A stretch of DNA of 64,000 nucleotides from an uncultured Lachnospiraceae bacterium. Its GTDB lineage: Bacteria > Bacillota > Clostridia > Lachnospirales > Lachnospiraceae. The DNA lies in the NCBI GenBank assembly GCA_947571775.1, contig CANOZK010000006.1:80281-144280 (forward strand), given 5' to 3'. Both the position numbers and the translations under genes were made by a program. The notes beneath the pieces were generated by a model that was not told the origin of the DNA, searched no databases, and saw only the letters and a program-made list of their open reading frames with translations. Positions 7,734 to 16,885 of this stretch are shown piece by piece (within the stretch, counting starts at the first letter, position 1; each line of letters begins with the position of its first letter).

Positions 7734-8297
7734 TTATTTTCTTATTTTTTTAGCTCCAGCAAATACGTTTGTATACTCATCTGCTTTTGAGATAACGTCT
7801 TTGTTGTAATCTGCTGTTGAAATACGTGCGCCGTTTTTGAAGAAACCAGTAGTTCTTGCTTCATAGGTGTTGTATTTCAGTAATTTGTTATCGCTCTTTC
7901 TGTAATCAACAGTTACAATTGTGCTGCCTTTTTTTGTAACAACACGCAGGCTTTTGCCCTTGCGAGTCATGCTTACACCGTTCTCTTTGATGTTCATAAT
8001 CTGAACGATTTCTTTTTTGTTTTTTCTGCGATAAGTATAAACTTTGTATGCTTCTTTACCATTTACGGTGTATTTAACGAACATTTCATTTACGCCGTCT
8101 TTATCCAGATCGTAGTAAGTAACTTTAGCATTTTTGTTTCCAATAGAATCATACAGATAATGACTTATGTAAGCCTGGTATGCTTCTTTTGGTTCCTTTA
8201 CTGCAGCCTTTACCTCTGCTGCCTGGAAACCAACGGAAACCTCAAGAACCATCATTAAAGCTGCTAATAAAAACGCTGTTTTCTTAAAAATTTTCAT
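7734..8297 (-). CDS. hypothetical secreted protein
   Basis: 187 aa. It has a signal-peptide-like N-terminus (MKIFKKTAFLLAALMMVLEVSVGFQAAEVKA), is Lys/Tyr-rich and contains a YYDLDKDGVNEMFV motif. RBS AAAGGAGA. The gene and its flanks are visibly more AT-rich than the neighbouring genes. Confidence 0.6.
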   Translation of the reverse strand: MKIFKKTAFLLAALMMVLEVSVGFQAAEVKAAVKEPKEAYQAYISHYLYDSIGNKNAKVTYYDLDKDGVNEMFVKYTVNGKEAYKVYTYRRKNKKEIVQIMNIKENGVSMTRKGKSLRVVTKKGSTIVTVDYRKSDNKLLKYNTYEARTTGFFKNGARISTADYNKDVISKADEYTNVFAGAKKIRK

Positions 8298-8492: not shown

Positions 8493-8532
8493 AGAAAAAG
8501 GGATACACTTTGCATTTGTATTACCCCCCCCC
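8493..8532 (-). terminator. candidate intrinsic terminator after the three-gene operon (includes the second G9 tract)
   Basis: The minus strand reads GGGGGGGGG-TA-ATACA-AATGCAAAG-TGTAT-CCC-TTTTTCTGTTT. GGG..ATACA pairs with TGTATCCC with a 2-nt bulge, and a T-run follows. It sits 50-90 nt after the stop of the 261-aa ORF. Confidence 0.45.
8524..8532. repeat. second C9 (G9 on the minus strand) homopolymer tract
   Basis: Nine consecutive C are read directly, 143 bp from the first tract. Confidence 0.9.
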
Positions 8533-8580: not shown

Positions 8581-9366
8581 TTAAGCCCCTGTGTTATGAT
8601 GATACTCCTTCGTCATCTGCCCTAGAAGCTCCTCTACGTTTTCTTCTTCTATATGGATATCGGTGCTGTTATAAAATTCGGAAATAGCGTCCTGGATTTC
8701 TTTCCTGGTCTGGTCGTCTACCTTCATCTCGTTCATCCTGCTCTCATATTCCACAGGGGTTTTGGCGTTGCTGTATGCCAGCAGATAATGCTTTAGGGAA
8801 TCCCTGGTATGCAGGCAGTCGTAGGCTTTCTCAAAGCACTCCAGCGCCTCCTCCTTCTGGAAAAGGCGGCTGTAAGCGCATCCCAAATTGTGATATACGC
8901 TCCCGGAAAACCGGGGCGAACCTGCGCGGCTGGACACCTGCTCCAAAACGGTGCGGTATACCCGGATCGCATTGACGTATTTGCGGTTTTCCATCAGGCA
9001 GTCCCCCTTTAGTTTTCCCCGCACAGGGACGGACTGCTTTTCCAAAGCAGAAATCTTGTTCCGATAGGAACGCAGTTCATCATGGGGCAGATAGTTGATG
9101 GAGCGCAGGATTTCACAGGCAAAATCCTCCAAAGGCACGCTCCCGTGCCCCAGCAAAATAGCCAGCCTCCTGGCCAGCTCTTTCATGCCCAGTTCCTGAC
9201 TGATCCATTTGCACAGCCCTGCATTCATCAGGCTGTCGTCCACCAGATACAAGTTCCGGTGCAGATAATAACACAACTCCTCAATGGAATAAATATTGGT
9301 GCCGATGCTCTGGATAAAATAAGGGGTTGCCGCCATTGGTGCTTTACATAAAATATAACCGCTCAT
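8581..9366 (-). CDS. hypothetical protein with a TPR-like C-terminal half (operon gene 3)
   Basis: 261 aa. RBS AGGAGG lies 6 nt before the ATG, and the ORF starts 10 nt after the stop of the upstream ORF. TPR-like spacing is seen in NRKYVNAIRVYRTVLEQ and VYHNLGCAYSRLFQKEEALECFEKAYD. There is no signal peptide or TM. Confidence 0.7.
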   Translation of the reverse strand: MSGYILCKAPMAATPYFIQSIGTNIYSIEELCYYLHRNLYLVDDSLMNAGLCKWISQELGMKELARRLAILLGHGSVPLEDFACEILRSINYLPHDELRSYRNKISALEKQSVPVRGKLKGDCLMENRKYVNAIRVYRTVLEQVSSRAGSPRFSGSVYHNLGCAYSRLFQKEEALECFEKAYDCLHTRDSLKHYLLAYSNAKTPVEYESRMNEMKVDDQTRKEIQDAISEFYNSTDIHIEEENVEELLGQMTKEYHHNTGA

Positions 9367-9376
9367 GAATACCTCC

Positions 9377-10624
9377 TTACGCCTGAATCGTCTCTGTCCA
9401 TATCCTTTTGCTGGAGGAGTACATCTCCCCGAAGCCCATATCCCTGACTGTAATTTTACAAACGGTTTCTGACTGGCACTCCAGGCATACCCGCAGGCGT
9501 GTGGTTCGATTTGGCCTGGAAGGAAGCCCCGGCAGGGGCATGGAAACCTTTTGTTTATCGTTGGACTGCATCTGACTGATATAGAAGGTAAGCTGATTGG
9601 TATCGTCCAAAATCAGATCGAAAACCGTCCGGCATTCATACCAGTTTTTTCCCGCCTGGATAATCGGATAATAGGCCGGAGAACCCATGATCATCATATC
9701 CATACCGATGTTGTATTTGACGAGCGCATCGCTTAGATAAAGGTATCTGCGAAGCTCTCTGTCTTCTAATTTTTCCTTTGCTGTATAGCAGGCTCCCTTG
9801 GCAAATAAATTATTGCCGTAAAAAACTTTCCTTTGATGCTTGCACAGCAGTTTGATGGAATTGCCCGCCCATTCCTGATGAAACCCGTTGCCCGTGATCA
9901 GAATACTGGAAAACATCCCCCCGCCCAGCGTCTCCTGGACAAATTTGCAAAACTGCGCGTCCCGACTTTCCGCCTCTGCGGGCAACTGGGCGGACACCGG
10001 CTTTTCCAAGGTGACCAGCACCGGCTTTGTGTTGCTTGTCATCGAAAGCTTTCGGAATTTTACCAAGTCCTGGGCAAAGGCATACCATCCGACGCTGCGG
10101 CTCCAGTATTCCGGTTTCTGGCATAAAGTATAATAATAAAAGCTTTCGGAATAGTCCTGCAACATATAGCCGTCTTGCGAAAAGCCGATGTCCTCACAAG
10201 CTTTTTGCAGGTTCTCCACCATGGTCCCGGTCAGCCGCTCCACCGTGATCACCAGGCATTTCGTGTGTTTTACCGGCTCCACCGTCCCCATAGACTTTAG
10301 CACCTTGTCCAAAAAGATCCCCATTAGCTCCCACGGCTGCATCTCCTCAATGCCAACCTGAACGCTTTCGGTGCTTTTGCAGATCTCATAGAGGCCTTCC
10401 ACCAGGATACCTTCCTGTTCTTTTGCGCAATCAACGGCCTCCAGGCCGAAATACCAGACATTCTGCTCCATACTCTTGCACATGCAAGTGGGAAATTCAT
10501 ACTGGCTGGTTCCGACCTTCATAGACAAGGATACCGGCTCCTTGGCTTTTCGGTCGTAATAACAAAGCTGTGATTCTGTTTTCCCAAAATCAATTCCTAT
10601 CAGAATATCCCTAATTTCATTCAT
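9377..10624 (-). CDS. divergent Hsp70/actin-fold (ASKHA-like) protein, function unknown (operon gene 2)
   Basis: I chose the start at ATG 10624 (MNEIRDILIGIDFGKT...), which overlaps the TGA of the upstream ORF (ATGAATGA). The track ORF begins 13 codons earlier. IGIDFGKT and CLVITVERLTGTMVENLQKACEDIGF align by eye with the DnaK phosphate-1 motif and its AVITVPAYFND..R.ATKDAG.IAGL segment. Confidence 0.7.
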   Translation of the reverse strand: MNEIRDILIGIDFGKTESQLCYYDRKAKEPVSLSMKVGTSQYEFPTCMCKSMEQNVWYFGLEAVDCAKEQEGILVEGLYEICKSTESVQVGIEEMQPWELMGIFLDKVLKSMGTVEPVKHTKCLVITVERLTGTMVENLQKACEDIGFSQDGYMLQDYSESFYYYTLCQKPEYWSRSVGWYAFAQDLVKFRKLSMTSNTKPVLVTLEKPVSAQLPAEAESRDAQFCKFVQETLGGGMFSSILITGNGFHQEWAGNSIKLLCKHQRKVFYGNNLFAKGACYTAKEKLEDRELRRYLYLSDALVKYNIGMDMMIMGSPAYYPIIQAGKNWYECRTVFDLILDDTNQLTFYISQMQSNDKQKVSMPLPGLPSRPNRTTRLRVCLECQSETVCKITVRDMGFGEMYSSSKRIWTETIQA

Positions 10625-13600
10625 AAACCGTTCCTTCTTCAATAGGGAACATACTTTCCACAAATTTTTCCTGTTCCAGATATTGCTTGATTTTTTCTTT
10701 TACCGCTTCTGCCCTGCCCAGCTTCTTCGCCGCCAGCATCTCATTGAGCATCTGGTATTTCGTCTCTTGATCCTGAGGGGCCATGGATTTGGTAAATGTT
10801 CGTTCGCTGGTCTTTTTTACCGTTCCGTCCAGCTCTATCGTGAAATAATAATGGATAGATTCGCCGTAAAAAAGAGTGAACGTCCGCCCATGTATCCCCT
10901 GAAACAGATCCGGCAAGGGTTCCTGATGATATTCCAGATCGTCTCCCACACCATTGTCCAAAGCGTAATGGATGGTCACTTCCGCTCGCGGGCTGGTGGC
11001 ATATTCCACAAACACCTTATCATCCCACTGATACGCGCCCAGCAGATTCTTAGGCAGCTTCCGAAAAAAGGCGAAGGTGAGATTTCTGTGGTAGCATTCC
11101 GCCAGCAGGCTTTTGACCTGCTCAAACTGATTCCCGTTCCATTTCTTTTTTTTGCAAAGCCAAGCCAGCAAAGCCAGACGGCACACCAGGGGCAACGGCC
11201 ACTCGCGCTCATAGGCAGCCGCCAGGCACCCGGCCGCATAATCCGGCATAGGCTTTTTGTGTATAAAATATTCATAAGAAAGAAAGGTCAGATAATCCCG
11301 GACTAATTGCTCGTTTCCTTTTTCTCGGACATAATGCTCCAACACCTGGCTGCCCTCCCAGAAAGAATCCCGCACAAAGATACTGACTGCCAGAATCTCC
11401 TCTTCCAACAGATAAGTATCTAACTGAAAATCCCTGGCGCACACCCAGAGCTGGTACAGCTCTGACACCGGGCCAACATAATACATCATCAGATATTCCA
11501 GAATCACCCCGTCATATTTCCCGCTCTGGAACACCGAAAACGCCAGCGCCAAAAGATCCTCATCCTCCTCAAATTCCTGATGGAGAATCCATCGGCTGCA
11601 CAGTTTGATCAGCGATTCCAGACATAGGCCCTCCAGACCGTACGCACAATAAATCTGCCAGGCTTTTTCATAGAATCTGTGGGCAATCAGCATTTCCGAC
11701 AAATGCACTTTATCTACATTCACATACTCCTCCACATCCAGAGAAGCCAGAAATCCCTCCGTTAGAAAAACCTCTTCCAGTGATTGGTAATAATCCAGCA
11801 GAGCTTTGCGGATCTGATTGCGGTATTCCAAAGTAAAGGCTTCGGATTGGGTAATCCGGCGGAAAACTTCGATATTGTTTTTTTGCAGCCCGCCCTGGCC
11901 GCCGCACTGATTCAGCAGAAAGCCCGGATGGGAAACATGTTCTGGATTTCCCTGGCCGCAGGCTTCCAGCATCTCTTTGTCAAAAAGTTTTTGCAGATTG
12001 TAGTCGATGGTGGCCTCATAGCGGCGTTTTTTTTCATCCTGAAACAGAATTACCGCGTCCTCTCTGTAAATCTTAGGATAGGCCAGGCCGTTGACACAGG
12101 GATACGATTCTTCCTCCTGCAAAGGGGCGTGCCGGATAATCACATACCGGATATCTGGACGGTCGCAGTACAGGCGGTGCGTAAATACAATTTTCTGCAA
12201 ATCCTCTTCTTCCAGCACATCCATACAGTCATGATACAGGACGGCATACGTCTCATCCATCGCCCCGCCGCGCAGCTTGCGCTTGCTGAAATCTTCCATA
12301 ATCTTGCGGTAGCCGGCGTAAGACTGGGGATCTTCTTCCCGGTGCCGGATAATATTGGCGTATAATAGCGCTTTCTTGTTATCGCTCAGCGTGTTGTTAT
12401 AGAGAAAATAAATCCGCAGATTCTTTGGCAGCAGCCGGGGATAATCCGCATCCACCGTATCCATGTAATACTCAAACAGGCTGGTAATCCGCAGGTTTTC
12501 CTCCACAGCCCTGGCAAACCAAGGGAAAAACCGTTTTTTTCTGGGACGGCCTTTCATAATCAGTTTGCAGATAGCTTCTAAAATGTCTTGTTTTGGATAG
12601 ACCTCATACAGATGAACCAAAAGCTGGAACAGGCAAGGTTCAAACCCTTTGCGGTAACCGCTCAGATAGGCGATCCGAACAGCCAGTTCTTCCCCAATTC
12701 GCTTATTTTTAGCCGCAAACAGCAGCACCTGGATCCAGAAGCCATTCAGATGGGGAAGCATACTGATATCTTTTTCCACCATGGAAAATGTTTCCAGATA
12801 CAGAAGCGGGCTTCGGCTCCCATAGTCATACTGTTCTTCCATCATATACAGAGTCTTTGCCGTGGATAACAACAGTTCGTCGTCCAACTGAGAAAGAACC
12901 CAAAATAACAGGAAACTGTTGGGCCTCTGCCGATACAGCAGACGCAGCTTTTGTACCACTTTGCTCCGGTCTTTGAGCAAATCCACCAAATGGCAGGCAT
13001 AGAGATATACGCCCGCCAATTCCAGATCGTCCGCGGTGAAATTTTTATCCTGATATTTCAGAAGAATCTCCTGGGCCAGTTTCGGCTCGTCGTTCATATA
13101 ATAAACATATGCTTTATAAACCTGGTAAATCGCATAATCACAACCGGCCTCTTCCATCTGCTCTAGCGTCTCGATACTGTTATTTGCCCAGATCTTATAA
13201 TCCTGCTGATGAAGACGGAATTTCAGATAACTCCGGTACAGTTTTAGCTTTTGTTTCTTCTCATAGATATCCATGTCCACCTGGATTTCAGGATTCTGGG
13301 AGGCTGTCACATGGTAATCTATGCTTTGATAAGCGTCTTTTACCCGGATTTTTCCGAATTTTTTTCCTTTGCCCAGACTATCGGCTTCCATCCGGTATTC
13401 CAGATGAAACGAACTGCCGATAAAATCCTCGTCCGTAACCACCTGCTTATCCACCTGGATAAAGTCTCCAATGACCTCGATTTCCAACCGCAGATGTCCC
13501 CACCCGCTCCTTTTGATTAGAAAAGATTCCTGCACCGTCTCCGTTACCTGGTAATGCTCGGCTGCGCTTTCTCCCAGCGAAACCGATACGGATTCTTTTT

Positions 13601-14159
13601 CCCCGATTCCAATCAGAAATTCCTCCAAATGCTGATAGGTCACCGGATTCTGGGACATTCCCTCGTAAAGCGTGCGTTCTCTCCCCTCCCGGATGCCTGC
13701 AATCTCTGGAAAAGCGGGATCGGTAAATAACCGGAACGCCTCCCGGAAGTTGCTACGGGCTAACTTTACAAAATCCTCCATGCCGCGGATGCGTCCCACC
13801 GAGGACTGGGGCTGGTTCGCCTGGACTTGGATAAAAAAGGGAATCCGATACTCTCCCAGATTCGTCAGAAGCTGCAGTTCCCCCTGAAAGCTGTCGTCGG
13901 GCCTTAGCCCATCTGCATCAATTCCATAGGGAATCTGAATGGCTGTGCCGGAAAACCGTTCAAGCCCAGGCACAAAACGCCGATGGGAGGAAACGGCAAA
14001 TCCGCGGATCTTTGTATCGTCTTGTGTTCCCACATAAAGAACTCCCTGGGTGTTCACTTCTTTGGGAACTGTCAAACGTATCTCTTCCTGGGAAAATATC
14101 AGTTTCGGGACTTCGTATTCAAATTTATCGCTGTGTAATTGCTCGATTCGTATTTTCAC
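10617..14159 (-). CDS. large hypothetical protein (1180 aa): beta-rich modules plus a long helical-repeat region (operon gene 1)
   Basis: GTG start at 14159 with RBS AGGAGA 5 nt upstream. The ORF is uninterrupted for 3.5 kb. I see no signal peptide, TM or catalytic motif. Beta-strand-like alternation occurs at the N-terminus (two modules), near residues 640-720, and at the C-terminus (VTIHYALDNG...IHYYFTIELDG). The rest is Leu/Tyr/Glu-rich and looks helical. Confidence 0.75.
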   Translation of the reverse strand: MKIRIEQLHSDKFEYEVPKLIFSQEEIRLTVPKEVNTQGVLYVGTQDDTKIRGFAVSSHRRFVPGLERFSGTAIQIPYGIDADGLRPDDSFQGELQLLTNLGEYRIPFFIQVQANQPQSSVGRIRGMEDFVKLARSNFREAFRLFTDPAFPEIAGIREGRERTLYEGMSQNPVTYQHLEEFLIGIGEKESVSVSLGESAAEHYQVTETVQESFLIKRSGWGHLRLEIEVIGDFIQVDKQVVTDEDFIGSSFHLEYRMEADSLGKGKKFGKIRVKDAYQSIDYHVTASQNPEIQVDMDIYEKKQKLKLYRSYLKFRLHQQDYKIWANNSIETLEQMEEAGCDYAIYQVYKAYVYYMNDEPKLAQEILLKYQDKNFTADDLELAGVYLYACHLVDLLKDRSKVVQKLRLLYRQRPNSFLLFWVLSQLDDELLLSTAKTLYMMEEQYDYGSRSPLLYLETFSMVEKDISMLPHLNGFWIQVLLFAAKNKRIGEELAVRIAYLSGYRKGFEPCLFQLLVHLYEVYPKQDILEAICKLIMKGRPRKKRFFPWFARAVEENLRITSLFEYYMDTVDADYPRLLPKNLRIYFLYNNTLSDNKKALLYANIIRHREEDPQSYAGYRKIMEDFSKRKLRGGAMDETYAVLYHDCMDVLEEEDLQKIVFTHRLYCDRPDIRYVIIRHAPLQEEESYPCVNGLAYPKIYREDAVILFQDEKKRRYEATIDYNLQKLFDKEMLEACGQGNPEHVSHPGFLLNQCGGQGGLQKNNIEVFRRITQSEAFTLEYRNQIRKALLDYYQSLEEVFLTEGFLASLDVEEYVNVDKVHLSEMLIAHRFYEKAWQIYCAYGLEGLCLESLIKLCSRWILHQEFEEDEDLLALAFSVFQSGKYDGVILEYLMMYYVGPVSELYQLWVCARDFQLDTYLLEEEILAVSIFVRDSFWEGSQVLEHYVREKGNEQLVRDYLTFLSYEYFIHKKPMPDYAAGCLAAAYEREWPLPLVCRLALLAWLCKKKKWNGNQFEQVKSLLAECYHRNLTFAFFRKLPKNLLGAYQWDDKVFVEYATSPRAEVTIHYALDNGVGDDLEYHQEPLPDLFQGIHGRTFTLFYGESIHYYFTIELDGTVKKTSERTFTKSMAPQDQETKYQMLNEMLAAKKLGRAEAVKEKIKQYLEQEKFVESMFPIEEGTVYE

Positions 14160-14209
14160 AAGTGTCTCCTACCGTTACTGGTCACTCATAAACAGTAACC
14201 TCCTGCCTC

Positions 14210-14239
14210 TTGACTTCTTATCTTCTGTCTTACTATAAT
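14210..14239 (+). promoter_or_regulatory. candidate sigma-A promoter of the cobD-like gene
   Basis: TTGACT (14210-14215), 18 nt, TATAAT (14234-14239), 33 nt upstream of ATG 14273. Confidence 0.45.
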
Positions 14240-14241
14240 GG

Positions 14242-14270
14242 ATTATACAAGAAAAAGAAAGGAGTCGCAA
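14242..14270 (-). promoter_or_regulatory. candidate sigma-A promoter of the three-gene operon
   Basis: The minus strand reads TTGCGA (14265-14270), 17 nt, TATAAT (14242-14247). It is back-to-back with the plus-strand promoter and would give a leader of about 75 nt. Confidence 0.4.
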
Positions 14271-14272
14271 GC

Positions 14273-15370
14273 ATGATTAAACATAAAGACCACTTTCACG
14301 GCAGCGATTTGGAAGAAATTGAGAAATGCTTTGGCATAAAAAAAGAAAAAATTACCAGCTTTAGCGCGAATGTGAATCCCCTGGGAATTTCCACCCGCTT
14401 GCGCACCGCACTGGGGAAACAGCTCGACGCCATCACCCGCTATCCAGACCGAGAATACGCCAAACTGCGCCAATGCATCTCAGCCTATACCGGCGCGCAG
14501 ATGGAAAATATCATTATGGGAAACGGCTCCACAGAACTGATTTCCCTTTTTATCCAGGTCAACCACCCCAGAAAGGCATTGATTCTGGGCCCCACCTATT
14601 CGGAGTACGAACGGGATATCAATCTGGGCGGGGGAAGCTGTATGTATTATCCCTTAAAAGAAAAAAAGGATTTCCAGCCCGATGTGGACGACTTGTGCCA
14701 GGAACTTCACGATGGATTGGATCTGCTGGTCATCTGCAACCCCAACAACCCCACCTCCACCGCCATTACTACCGCGCAGATGCGCCGCATTCTGGACGCC
14801 TGCCTTCAATTCGGCATCTTTGTAATGGTGGATGAAACTTATGTAGAATTTGCCCCCAACGAGACACAGATCACCTCGGTAAAGCTGACCAATTATTACA
14901 CCAACTTAATCATTCTGCGGGGAACCTCCAAATTCTTTGCCGCCCCCGGCCTGCGCTTAGGGTACGCCATCACGGGAAATTTTGATCTGATTTCGGAAAT
15001 CAATCTGCGAAAAGATCCCTGGACCATCAACAGTCTGGCGGAGATTGCCGGCCAGATCATGTTCCAGGACCAGGAATACATCCAGGCGACCAAAGATTTG
15101 ATCGACAAAGAGAGAGAAAGAATCTTTCAGATATTATCCGGCTGGGATTCTGTCAAAGTTTACCCTCCCCAGGGAAACTTTATCCTGATGCGGATTCTGC
15201 GGGAAGATATCGACGCACAGATGCTCTTTGAACACTGCATCAAAAAAGGACTGATGATCCGGGACTGCTCCACCTTCCCATTTCTGGATTCCCAGTATAT
15301 CCGATTCTGTATGATGCTGCCCGAACAAAATGATGCTCTGATCGATGCTTTTTTTGAGAAATTAAAATAA
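14273..15370 (+). CDS. class I/II PLP-dependent aminotransferase family; threonine-phosphate decarboxylase (CobD)-like or histidinol-phosphate aminotransferase-like
   Basis: The start is moved to ATG 14273 (RBS AAAGGAG 8 nt upstream). The motifs HGSDL...FSANVNPLG, NPNNPTS and SKFFAAPGLRLGY (PLP lysine region) fit this family. The specific CobD assignment is tentative. Confidence 0.7.
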   Translation: MIKHKDHFHGSDLEEIEKCFGIKKEKITSFSANVNPLGISTRLRTALGKQLDAITRYPDREYAKLRQCISAYTGAQMENIIMGNGSTELISLFIQVNHPRKALILGPTYSEYERDINLGGGSCMYYPLKEKKDFQPDVDDLCQELHDGLDLLVICNPNNPTSTAITTAQMRRILDACLQFGIFVMVDETYVEFAPNETQITSVKLTNYYTNLIILRGTSKFFAAPGLRLGYAITGNFDLISEINLRKDPWTINSLAEIAGQIMFQDQEYIQATKDLIDKERERIFQILSGWDSVKVYPPQGNFILMRILREDIDAQMLFEHCIKKGLMIRDCSTFPFLDSQYIRFCMMLPEQNDALIDAFFEKLK

Positions 15371-15399: not shown

Positions 15400-16110
15400 A
15401 TGAAAGACTCTATCGTTTTTTCCACGTTCCATCCAGAGGAAAACACAAGCAATACGATAATCCTTTCCTGCCACACAGTCCGAAAAGAGCTGGAACATGC
15501 AATGCAGGCTGTGGGCACAAATTTTCCGGTCGCCTATCTGGAATCCAAACTCCACGACACGCCTGAACAATTAAGAAAAGTATTGCAGGAACAGATCGAT
15601 ACCGCAGGCAAAAGCGGCGTCCGCCGCATCCTTTTGGGATATGCCACCTGCGGAAATTCTGTGGCAGGACTGCGAACAGGTTCTTGCGAACTGATTCTCC
15701 CCCGGACAGACGACTGCGTTACTTTTTTTCTGGGTTCCATGGACAGACGACGGAAAATGCCTGCCGGAACTTTTTATGTAACTCATGGCTGGCTTTACGA
15801 TGAAGGCCATGGACAAAGCTATTATCAGGAAATCTTGGAAAAATACGGAGAAGAAACCGGCCAAGAGATTTATGAAATGATGATGGAACATTATCAGGAT
15901 GTAGGCGTTTTGGACACACACTGTTATGAAATGGAACAGCTAAAAAAGGACGCCCACGCGTTCGCCGACTGCCTGGGACTGGGTTACACGGAAATAGACG
16001 CCTCCAACAGCTATCTGGAACAGCTGCTGACTGGCCCATGGGAAAAAGAACGTTTTTTTATATTTGGTCCCGATCACTGCATTACAGAAGAGGAACTCTT
16101 TCTGCCCTGA
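15400..16110 (+). CDS. DUF1638-like protein (family often found near corrinoid-dependent genes)
   Basis: 236 aa. The motifs ILSCHTVRKELEHAM, LLGYATCGNS and PRTDDCVTFFLGS resemble what I recall of DUF1638. This call is by recollection only. Confidence 0.5.
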   Translation: MKDSIVFSTFHPEENTSNTIILSCHTVRKELEHAMQAVGTNFPVAYLESKLHDTPEQLRKVLQEQIDTAGKSGVRRILLGYATCGNSVAGLRTGSCELILPRTDDCVTFFLGSMDRRRKMPAGTFYVTHGWLYDEGHGQSYYQEILEKYGEETGQEIYEMMMEHYQDVGVLDTHCYEMEQLKKDAHAFADCLGLGYTEIDASNSYLEQLLTGPWEKERFFIFGPDHCITEEELFLP

Positions 16111-16178: not shown

Positions 16179-16583
16179 TTAAATATCCTCCAGATTTCCT
16201 CCATAGTATCTGAGAAGTTCTTCCCTCACACACTGAAAAGCTGGAATATATTCTGTTAAAATCGTCTGTACCAGCCGTTTTGCCGCCTCTCCACTGTAAA
16301 TATGAGTCACATCGTTTCTGTCTTTTAACATGGAAAGCCAAACCGTCTCATCCAAAAAATTATAAACAGAGAATGCCGCTTTGATGATTGCTCTGGGGGA
16401 ACCGGTAGCGGCTACTGCTTTTCCCTCATACCGCAGCAGTTCTTTTAAGACCTTCCACGACAATTCAAACTGAACAAAAAACTTATCAATAATGCCGCTT
16501 ATAATAAATTCATTATCCAAATCTTCTTTGTCTGCCCGCAGCAAAACATCCAAATTGGAAGAAAAATTATCAAACTTTTTCAT
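16179..16583 (-). CDS. HEPN-domain protein, HI0074-type nucleotidyltransferase substrate-binding protein (putative toxin)
   Basis: 134 aa with the Rx4H HEPN motif RNDVTH and the FELSWK.LKELL helix typical of the HI0074 family. There is a 4-nt ATGA overlap with the upstream MNT gene. Confidence 0.8.
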   Translation of the reverse strand: MKKFDNFSSNLDVLLRADKEDLDNEFIISGIIDKFFVQFELSWKVLKELLRYEGKAVAATGSPRAIIKAAFSVYNFLDETVWLSMLKDRNDVTHIYSGEAAKRLVQTILTEYIPAFQCVREELLRYYGGNLEDI

Positions 16584-16885
16584 TTTCTGTAAATTACAAT
16601 TCCTTCTTTTTGTATCGATTCCGCCAATTCCTTTTGAATCGGCTTATTCAAATCCACGACGTCATATTCCAGAAGTGTCTGTGTTTTCTCATCTACATCC
16701 AACGCAAAGTGCAGAACATCGCCTCCCAGAACAGCTAAATCGATGTCACTGGCGCGCTGAAAATCGCCCCGCGCCCGCGATCCGAACAAAAACACTTTTT
16801 TTAAATCGTATTTTTCTGCCAATTGACGGATTTCATCCAATACCACATCACGGATGCCAAAATCAGCCGCGCACTTTTCTGTCAT
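16580..16885 (-). CDS. minimal nucleotidyltransferase (MNT, HI0073-type; putative antitoxin)
   Basis: 101 aa with the pol-beta NTase signature LFGSRARGD....SDIDLAV. Confidence 0.85.
   Translation of the reverse strand: MTEKCAADFGIRDVVLDEIRQLAEKYDLKKVFLFGSRARGDFQRASDIDLAVLGGDVLHFALDVDEKTQTLLEYDVVDLNKPIQKELAESIQKEGIVIYRK

Follow-up and report, generated by a model that had tools for sequence, protein, structure and literature searches.

What kind of machine do three tightly packed minus-strand genes encode in an uncultured Lachnospiraceae bacterium, and is it peculiar to that genome? The genes lie in a 64-kb stretch of DNA (contig CANOZK010000006.1, positions 80,281 to 144,280; the whole stretch is called the window below). 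An original prediction, made from the letters alone, had described them as an orphan operon for a non-enzymatic scaffold, an ASKHA-fold NTPase and a tetratricopeptide repeat (TPR) adaptor, which might form a chaperone-like, cytoskeletal or surveillance machine. We find that the trio is a Lachnospiraceae-wide core-genome module consisting of a DUF5717 protein (gene 1), a DUF5716 protein (gene 2) and a TPR protein (gene 3), and that gene 2 is, on its predicted structure, a true Hsp70 derivative, collinear with DnaK and with the interdomain linker and the beta substrate-binding domain (SBD) retained. The DUF5716/DUF5717-like names that the original prediction had offered were confirmed by Pfam, in which both families are already catalogued, and their existence is not new.

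The gene 2 product matches PF18980 (DUF5716_C) over residues 124-414 (E = 1.2e-103; 346.6 bits against a cut-off of 34.7), and its AlphaFold2 model has a predicted local distance difference test score (pLDDT) of 90.2 and a predicted template-modeling score (pTM) of 0.85. In a Foldseek search of the PDB with this model, DnaK, Hsc70 and BiP stood on top (E = 8.9e-20 to 1e-15, probability 1.0, TM-scores 0.5-0.63), the best match being a near-full-length DnaK (E = 8.9e-20, TM-score 0.62 on the query). The alignments traverse both the nucleotide-binding domain (NBD) and the beta SBD of DnaK, and all 50 neighbors of gene 2 among the matches listed belong to the Hsp70/Hsp110 family. With these neighbors and a beta SBD present, an identity as an actin-like ATPase (MreB, FtsA, ParM) was rejected. 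Like DnaK, gene 2 is modeled with a two-lobed ASKHA NBD, a hydrophobic interdomain linker and an eight-stranded beta SBD, but it has 415 aa as compared with about 640 in DnaK. The last of the eight strands occupies residues 408-414, and because the chain stops directly after it, at residue 415, gene 2 has no helical lid.

Nine landmarks, placed on the E. coli DnaK sequence with approximate numbering, are collinear between DnaK and gene 2; of the eight intervals that they mark off, six are within three residues of their length in DnaK. These are, with DnaK given first, connect 1 to phosphate 2 (23 and 24 residues), the adenosine motif to connect 2 (30 and 30), connect 2 to the linker (21 and 23), the linker to the first SBD strand (8 and 10), the first SBD strand to the PAPRG-like motif (67 and 64) and the PAPRG-like to the DKNSGKE-like motif (24 and 25). 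The other two intervals, from phosphate 1 to connect 1 (164 and 146) and from phosphate 2 to the adenosine motif (145 and 61), are clearly shorter in gene 2. By this spacing, gene 2 is an Hsp70 that has lost 84 residues in one place and 18 in another; going by size and position, the larger loss corresponds to subdomain IIB and the smaller one falls within IB. Subdomain IIB of Hsp70 is the site of nucleotide-exchange factors and also closes over the adenine. A single helix (residues 218-233) spans the gap between phosphate 2 and the adenosine motif in the gene 2 model. Within the SBD, the gene 2 motifs LPGLPxRPNxTTR and DxGFGE pair with PAPRGMPQIEV and DKNSGKE of DnaK at matched spacing.

In sequence searches, gene 2 has no match to Pfam HSP70 at E <= 1, and no Hsp70 chain appears in its PDB sequence and profile searches. 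Alignment to DnaK by hhalign gave a probability of 8% for a gene 2 profile of 30 sequences and a marginal result for a family profile of 119 sequences (probability 52%, E = 1.4e-4, 219 columns). Residue statistics were taken over 119 full-length cluster representatives of DUF5716. Of the 119, 117 have D/E at the site of the phosphate-1 Asp, only 33 have the Gly of the phosphate-1 DxG, and 83 have D/E at the phosphate-2 position; a phosphate-2 glycine loop occurs in none of them. The window protein has Ala at the phosphate-2 position (A182; D194 in DnaK), as do 21 of 30 close relatives. Near-invariant sites in the family are found in the adenosine motif (G245 in 119/119, G247 and F248), in connect 2 (G270, N272, G277 and A278) and in the SBD (G325, W328 and D395-x-G-F-G-E). 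This pattern suggests that the fold and the peptide-binding half, and not the canonical catalytic center, are under the most visible selection.

Of the predicted ASKHA-fold NTPase, the fold is upheld by the Foldseek matches, and the NTPase label is doubtful, as the phosphate loops are degenerate and IIB is deleted. Five of seven Hsp70 features are missing from gene 2 (canonical ATPase loops, IIB, a lid, membership by sequence profile and a J/GrpE partner); what it does have is an ASKHA NBD followed by a linker and a beta-sandwich SBD. The partners also set the locus apart from that of DnaK, because it encodes no J-protein or GrpE, and the neighbors of gene 2 are instead the genes for a TPR protein and a giant scaffold. 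In the window operon and in the eight distant neighborhoods described below, Pfam detects neither a DnaJ nor a GrpE domain. The HPD tripeptide is absent from all three proteins, in keeping with the earlier statement that the trio has neither a J-domain nor an effector domain.

Gene 1 matches PF18984 (DUF5717_N) over residues 1-864 (E = 2.5e-238, 793.6 bits) and PF18983 (DUF5717) over residues 866-1171 (E = 1.4e-97, 327.1 bits), each against a cut-off of 25. Its AlphaFold2 model (mean pLDDT 82.7, pTM 0.53) matches the alternation of beta-rich and helical segments that had been read from the sequence (table 1), and on this model gene 1 is a large non-enzymatic scaffold of three Ig-like sandwiches and a TPR-like superhelix of about 650 residues. 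In the PDB, Foldseek relates the N-terminal ~290 residues to ciliary central-apparatus chains, the SPD-2 domain of CEP192, P. gingivalis 2qsv and tandem Ig modules, and the helical part to Ski3, Ctr9, OGT, Naa15 and IFT-A subunits; a viral structure library gave generic Ig-like matches only (BACON/PKD/BIG2-type domains). The tandem Ig/ASH part is matched at E = 1e-7 to 1e-5 and the solenoid (against Ski3, Ctr9, Naa15 and IFT-A) at E = 1e-5 to 1e-3, and TM-scores of 0.07-0.15 with identities of 5-12% indicate a likeness of fold class only. Because the TM-scores are low, these matches set the fold class, Ig/ASH-like sandwiches plus a TPR-like superhelix, and not homology; PDB sequence and profile searches gave no match of gene 1 to TPR-superhelix or ASH/Ig scaffolds. 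Ski3, Ctr9, Naa15, IFT-A and the ASH/Ig-plus-solenoid neighbors are all non-enzymatic assembly platforms, and gene 1 matches no catalytic family, so the earlier description of a non-enzymatic scaffold agrees with the generic Ig/ASH and TPR scaffolds that Foldseek returned.

Several parts of gene 1 are conserved out of proportion to the whole. In the C-terminal sandwich, G1088, F1094, L1096, F1097, G1099 and E1100 do not vary among sequences whose overall identity is down to 23-28%, and other residues invariant at this distance lie in the connector (F130, L133, A134, E140 and A141) and within residues 561-600. The small beta insert is densely conserved among close relatives (R662, Y664, C665, D666, P687, C688, G691, Y694, P695 and others). 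The tail (residues 1167-1180, window positions 10620-10658) has a pLDDT below 50, and an invariant Phe, F1171, forms an [LIM]-F motif close to the C terminus in 10 of 10 distant sequences that are 23-28% identical. It is plausible that this motif is a docking peptide or short linear motif.

Gene 3 was said to contain two TPR-like units, and Pfam TPR matches agree: TPR_1, TPR_2, TPR_8 and TPR_12 all exceed their cut-offs within residues 120-183, with TPR_2 at 157-182 (E = 1.5e-9) and TPR_12 at 120-183. Its first ~190 residues are 26-37% identical in distant loci. Moreover, genes 2 and 3 occur as fusions of 671-745 aa in 7 of the 150 best DUF5716 cluster representatives and in the protein P0016, and the C-terminal halves of these fusions match 180-260 of the 261 gene 3 residues (E = 1.3e-10 to 2.4e-78). 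The two genes are thus joined in eight or more lineages, and the recurrence in clusters less than 50% identical argues for real fusions and for a direct contact between the products of genes 2 and 3. None of the three proteins has a hydrophobic segment of transmembrane grade, as had been predicted (the maximum 19-residue Kyte-Doolittle mean is 1.35).

The distribution of the trio was examined in a scan with one genome per species, which found gene 2 relatives in at least 532 species. B. wexlerae, B. luti and B. schinkii are among the carriers of the unit. Gene order and flanks were analyzed in the best 80 of these loci, all from Blautia-like Lachnospiraceae; tblastn detected DUF5717-DUF5716-TPR on one strand and in the same order in 80/80, and the genes flanking the trio vary between subclades. 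A profile search against 1.84 billion cluster representatives returned 1,666 DUF5716 clusters (at 50% identity) with E <= 1e-3, 1,135 with E <= 1e-10 and 645 with E <= 1e-30, and the names of the homologs are all Lachnospiraceae, Blautia, Kineothrix, Clostridiales or Eubacteriales. Three loci (L033, L052 and L071) come from genome bins labeled Eggerthellaceae, Prevotella sp. and Ruminococcus bicirculans, with DUF5716 proteins 51-56% identical to the query. Because this identity equals that of the surrounding Blautia loci, a binning error is suspected, and these three are probably bin contamination.

A distant set was built with a profile from representatives that are only 25-30% identical to the window protein, which gave eight long contigs. 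The trio is kept in all eight of these Lachnospiraceae loci. The survey of neighborhoods that the original prediction had proposed thus shows the three genes co-occurring in order in Lachnospiraceae loci, and with the same order in 80/80 loci and 10 distant loci the word orphan does not apply. The TPR gene is followed by a fourth gene in the same direction (392-406 aa) in seven of the eight distant loci, and also in two other contigs. Its product has an acidic coiled-coil N-terminal half, two hydrophobic (transmembrane) helices and a helical C-terminal half, and belongs to no Pfam or NCBIfam family. Neither the window nor any of the 80 Blautia-type loci has the fourth gene at this place, and we suggest, from these arrangements, that the four-gene unit is the ancestral state. 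Six of the eight distant loci have htpG (HSP90) on the same strand as DUF5717 and one to four genes 5' of it, with a prsA-type rotamase gene ahead of htpG. It directly adjoins the unit only in L081 (115 bp), and elsewhere usually variable genes lie between. No htpG is found within 10 kb in the window clade (0/81, the window plus the 80 Blautia-type loci). The proximity of htpG could reflect inherited synteny or a chaperone link. A PG_binding_1 / SpoIID-like gene adjoins the unit or lies a few genes from it in seven of the eight distant loci. Downstream of the trio are purC and purF in the window, and an amino-acid ABC transporter and pur genes in distant loci.

It is also evident from tblastn that the unit occurs in five GenBank 'Bacteriophage sp.' records, all of which are labeled UNVERIFIED or carry no annotation. 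Two of them from human fecal virome, MT835486.1 (L090) and MT835719.1 (L091), contain the four-gene unit at 25-30% identity. The flanks of the unit in MT835486 carry rarA, valS, and polysaccharide deacetylase, NAGPA and GT2-GtrA / glycosyltransferase genes, and because of rarA, valS and these cell-wall genes MT835486 is taken to be bacterial chromosomal DNA. A phage association was rejected, as the records are UNVERIFIED virome contigs and the one examined is bacterial. The four genes stay together in MT835486 despite its quite different chromosomal context.

The candidate promoter that had been proposed upstream of gene 1 was found by a consensus scan and is conserved in relatives. TTGCG(C/A)-N17-(GTG)TATAAT stands 5' of DUF5717 in the window, in close relatives and in many Blautia loci with differing upstream genes, and the motif is still recognizable in distant loci. 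Upstream of DUF5717, nothing resembling a sigma-E, -K, -F or -G-type element stands out. The conserved sigma-A-type promoter argues for vegetative expression of the operon. The hairpin and T-run that had been proposed as a terminator downstream of gene 3 did not hold up, as the terminator scan made no call there and the folding energy of the segment is no better than that of shuffled sequences (z = -0.75). Because Rfam finds no RNA family anywhere in the window, a riboswitch or leader does not explain regulation. A divergent sigma-A-like promoter (TTGACT-18-TATAAT) on the plus strand serves a class I/II aminotransferase gene; the two promoters in window positions 14210-14270 stand back-to-back with adjacent -10 boxes and predicted transcripts that overlap by about 10 nt, and both are kept in relatives that share the aminotransferase neighbor.

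How, then, might the three products work together? The reading that we favor, and hold tentatively, is that they form a stable cytosolic complex with an Ssz1-like structural Hsp70 subunit, encoded by a vegetatively expressed core operon. The tight coupling of the genes, their invariant order, the fusions of genes 2 and 3 and the lack of an enzyme domain point to one multi-protein assembly. In such an assembly, DUF5717 would be the platform, and DUF5716 would act mainly as a structural or regulatory peptide clamp and not as an ATP-cycling foldase, its beta SBD holding an extended segment of a partner or client. The small TPR protein would serve as adaptor between the Hsp70-like subunit and the scaffold or clients, and in most of the other Lachnospiraceae the assembly would be anchored to the membrane by the fourth protein, with its coiled coil and two transmembrane helices. 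A structural clamp is proposed because IIB, the lid, the glycine loops and the J/GrpE partners are lost while the linker and a conserved beta SBD are kept. What the analysis shows is the structure of the genes, their folds, the decay of the motifs, the constant order, the gene 2-3 fusions, the type of promoter and the taxonomic range; complex formation, the clamp role, and any assembly or holdase function of the trio are what we infer from these patterns.

A constitutive complex is proposed because of Ssz1, the nearest precedent in function, which is a stable subunit of the ribosome-associated complex (RAC) and has a segment of a partner in its SBD. Ssz1 does not go through the ATP cycle of a normal Hsp70. 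It is a structural neighbor of gene 2 (6sr6, 7x3k and 5mb9; E = 5e-15 to 1e-12), likewise lacks a normal lid, and its SBD holds the partner segment as a pseudo-substrate, as the title of 6sr6 states ('pseudo substrate bound to Ssz1 SBD'). In contrast to gene 2, Ssz1 has a full-size NBD and pairs with a J-protein (Zuo1) on the ribosome, whereas for the trio no J-domain or ribosome link was seen and no J-protein is encoded nearby. The resemblance would thus be one of functional analogy and does not imply orthology. Several points weigh against a complex with a catalytically silent subunit. The loss of ATPase activity in DUF5716 is deduced from motifs only, and D12, D157/E160 and the invariant G245 and G247 could support nucleotide binding or slow hydrolysis. 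Furthermore, the linker of the P0016 fusion resembles translated intergenic DNA (locus L089), and some of the gene 2-3 fusions may be products of stop-codon read-through or assembly artefacts.

Those residues lead to the first alternative, that the trio is an active specialized Hsp70 machine in which DUF5716 hydrolyzes ATP through non-canonical loops, the TPR protein is a co-chaperone and DUF5717 is a client-recruiting adaptor or a dedicated client, perhaps together with HtpG. We consider this rather unlikely. The Hsp70 fold, linker and SBD-beta of gene 2 are intact, acidic residues are kept at phosphate 1 and connect 1, the adenosine motif is invariant, and an Asp or Glu stands at phosphate 2 in most of the DUF5716 family, although not in the window genome. 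However, such a machine would have to work without a phosphate-2 glycine loop, IIB, a lid, or a J-protein or GrpE partner. The htpG and prsA-type genes upstream in six of the eight distant loci, adjacent in L081, would suit it as well, but htpG is missing from the neighborhood of the window and the 80 Blautia-type loci, and the genes that split htpG from the unit are variable and often on the opposite strand, which fits inherited synteny better than an operon. Hop and CHIP are eukaryotic TPR co-chaperones of Hsp70 and Hsp90. The trio resembles Hop/Sti1 and CHIP in that a small TPR protein is genetically, and sometimes physically, coupled to an Hsp70-family protein, and in that Hsp90 is close by in the six distant loci, a link absent in the window genome. 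It differs in that neither possible TPR partner has an EEVD-type end (the C termini are ...WTETIQA in gene 2 and ...EEGTVYE in gene 1, and the conserved feature of the gene 1 tail is [LIM]-F, not EEVD), and in that gene 3 has no assignable carboxylate-clamp residues and carries a family-specific N-terminal domain.

A second alternative, compatible with the complex that we favor, is a membrane-proximal structural or morphogenetic scaffold for the envelope, division or sporulation, with a passive Hsp70-like protein; we regard it as quite unlikely. It would account for the transmembrane fourth gene and the PG_binding_1 / SpoIID-like gene, each in seven of the eight distant loci, and for the unit of L090 lying amid polysaccharide deacetylase, NAGPA and GT2-GtrA genes. 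Against this, the neighbors differ between clades, the membrane gene is absent at the locus in the window genome and the whole Blautia-type clade, and Pfam finds no domain of known envelope function in the three proteins. Also in favor of this reading, sigK (NF004471, 298 bits) is the divergent upstream neighbor of DUF5717 in 34 of the 80 Blautia loci (among L014-L078), but the conserved promoter is of the sigma-A and not the sigma-E/K/F/G type. A sporulation-specific role was down-weighted on the ground of this promoter and of a sigK adjacency confined to one clade. In the Blautia loci, sigK is itself preceded by conserved RNase J-like, O-methyltransferase and U32 peptidase genes.

Anti-phage or conflict surveillance, with the TPR/Ig scaffold sensing an invader and the Hsp70-like protein transducing the signal, is very improbable: NTP-dependent conflict systems, as predicted, do include repeat scaffolds and Hsp70 paralogs (Kaur et al. 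2020, PMC7159879), and the unit does occur in the five 'phage' records, but those are virome contigs of the kind described above, no effector, GTPase, tubulin or nuclease component is present, no significant PADLOC, specific PHROG or plasmid match was obtained, and the unit keeps its gene order at a fixed syntenic core-genome site by the pur genes. The surveillance element of the original prediction finds no support, there being no defense-family or plasmid match and the 'phage' record examined being bacterial DNA. The conflict systems share with the trio an Hsp70 paralog, beta-sandwich repeats and TPR proteins in one neighborhood, but they have a GAP1-N2 or DO-type GTPase, often GrpE and DnaJ, effectors and a patchy distribution (PMC7159879), none of which was found for the trio; membership was rejected for want of a GTPase, GrpE, DnaJ or effector.

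The earlier impression that the operon corresponds to no characterized system was borne out by PADLOC, NCBIfam, PDB sequence searches and the literature. PADLOC gave chance-level matches only (E = 0.004-0.02), PHROGs generic TPR matches only, and no plasmid match was found for the unit; NCBIfam has nothing for genes 1 and 2, and PDB sequence and profile searches with the trio proteins returned nothing specific. The literature search found no relevant mention of DUF5716, DUF5717 or their Pfam accessions and no published study. The trio belongs to none of the characterized families of co-chaperones, RAC, conflict systems or actin-like proteins. Judged by the literature that could be searched, it is new to identify DUF5716 as a minimal degenerate Hsp70, and new too are the folds that make up DUF5717, an ancestral unit of four genes, the fusion of genes 2 and 3, and a core-genome distribution across Lachnospiraceae.

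The ORF list of the window shows the three genes as one tightly packed unit, with coordinates, starts, overlap, gap and ribosome-binding sites (RBSs) as first predicted. At the junction of genes 1 and 2 (tATGAATGAaa), the gene 1 TGA (10617-10619) follows the gene 2 ATG (10624), an overlap of 8 nt. The ORF listing also offers a TTG start for gene 2 at 10663, 13 codons further upstream; the ATG is preferred because the homologs all begin with MNEIRD. Gene 2 ends with TAA at 9377-9379, 10 nt from the gene 3 ATG at 9366. The RBS block of gene 1, TAGGAGACACTTGTGAA, is nearly identical in eight aligned sequences, with one or two substitutions in three of them. The space from the operon to purC holds a gene for a 187-aa protein that is kept only in the closest relatives L002 and L005 (54-57% identity). 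On the other side, a DUF1638 protein gene lies 30 nt 3' of the aminotransferase gene on the same strand, followed by a minus-strand pair whose arrangement is that of an MNT/HEPN-type toxin-antitoxin-like pair.

Table 1. Features of the DUF5717-DUF5716-TPR operon, its surroundings in the window, and related genes in other loci (positions refer to the window unless a locus is named)
Feature	Position	Strand	Residues	Details
Gene 1, DUF5717 protein, putative cytosolic Ig-like/TPR-like scaffold	10617-14159	-		1180 aa, GTG start
Gene 1, Ig-like beta-sandwich 1	13824-14102	-	20-112	Strands in AlphaFold2 model
Gene 1, helical connector			127-184	AlphaFold2 model
Gene 1, Ig-like beta-sandwich 2	13299-13583	-	193-287	AlphaFold2 model and Foldseek
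Gene 1, TPR-like alpha-solenoid, first part	12195-13274	-	296-655	~24 helices, AlphaFold2 model
Gene 1, small conserved beta insert	12000-12182	-	~660-720	Short strands, pLDDT roughly 58-88
Gene 1, TPR-like alpha-solenoid, second part	11058-11978	-	728-1034	~17 helices, AlphaFold2; Foldseek TPR scaffolds
Gene 1, C-terminal beta-sandwich	10791-11018	-	1048-1123	F.LF.GE motif; AlphaFold2 model
Gene 1, C-terminal part	10620-10760	-	1134-1170 and 1167-1180	Two helices and low-confidence tail; AlphaFold2
Gene 2, DUF5716 protein	9377-10624	-		415 aa, ATG start
Gene 2, reduced Hsp70-type NBD	9746-10624	-	1-293	Predicted without IIB, degenerate phosphate loops; AlphaFold2, Foldseek
Gene 2, linker YLYLSD and Hsp70-type beta SBD	9380-9745	-	294-415	No helical lid; AlphaFold2, Foldseek
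Gene 3, TPR protein	8581-9366	-	1-115, ~118-200, tail	261 aa, ATG start; family-specific N-terminal domain, TPR region, helical tail
Gene 3 RBS	9372-9378	-		AAGGAGG, read from sequence; overlaps gene 2 stop codon
Gene 1 RBS	14165-14170	-		AGGAGA, read from sequence; six bases before GTG
Sigma-A-type candidate promoter	14242-14270	-		TTGCGA-17-TATAAT; consensus scan 10/12
Possible weak intrinsic terminator, unconfirmed	8493-8532	-		Poor stem (G-run ... CCC) then TTTTTCTGTTT
187-aa protein gene	7734-8297	-		N-terminal hydrophobic signal-like segment; no Pfam family
Divergent promoter	14210-14239	+		TTGACT-18-TATAAT
Class I/II aminotransferase gene	14273-15370	+		
DUF1638 protein gene	15400-16110	+		
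Nucleotidyltransferase and NTase substrate-binding protein genes	16179-16885	-		PF18765/PF01909, 101 aa, and PF08780, 134 aa; 4-nt overlap
Fourth gene, examples	L081:10344-11549; L082:12183-13364; L083:12242-13426			
htpG	L081:2482-4509; L082:2694-4766; L083:2768-4879; L085:2890-4962; L087:671-2734; L088:1059-3077			
sigK, representative	L039:4145-4774	-		

The operon is thus a core-genome module present in at least 532 species in one scan, with about 1,100 DUF5716 clusters at 50% identity, in a family that, Blautia included, ranks with the most abundant human gut bacteria. To our knowledge, partnerships of Hsp70 with TPR proteins are considered to be inventions of eukaryotes, as are structural, catalytically silent Hsp70s of the Ssz1 kind, and bacterial Hsp90 is generally described as working without co-chaperones. 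A broader proposal, which we offer as speculative and somewhat improbable, is that the unit is a bacterial chaperone-like machine not recognized before, in which a catalytically degenerate mini-Hsp70 is permanently docked through a TPR adaptor on a giant TPR/Ig platform, and in most Lachnospiraceae also at the membrane, as a counterpart of the eukaryote-style Hsp70-TPR (possibly Hsp90) assemblies or of RAC, serving a Lachnospiraceae-specific assembly process. If true, a bacterial Hsp70 without lid and IIB that is welded to TPR genes would be a minimal natural system in which to ask what parts of Hsp70 peptide clamping requires when there is no ATP cycle, and the DUF5716-TPR unit might lead to an assembly process specific to the lineage, perhaps one at the membrane or envelope.

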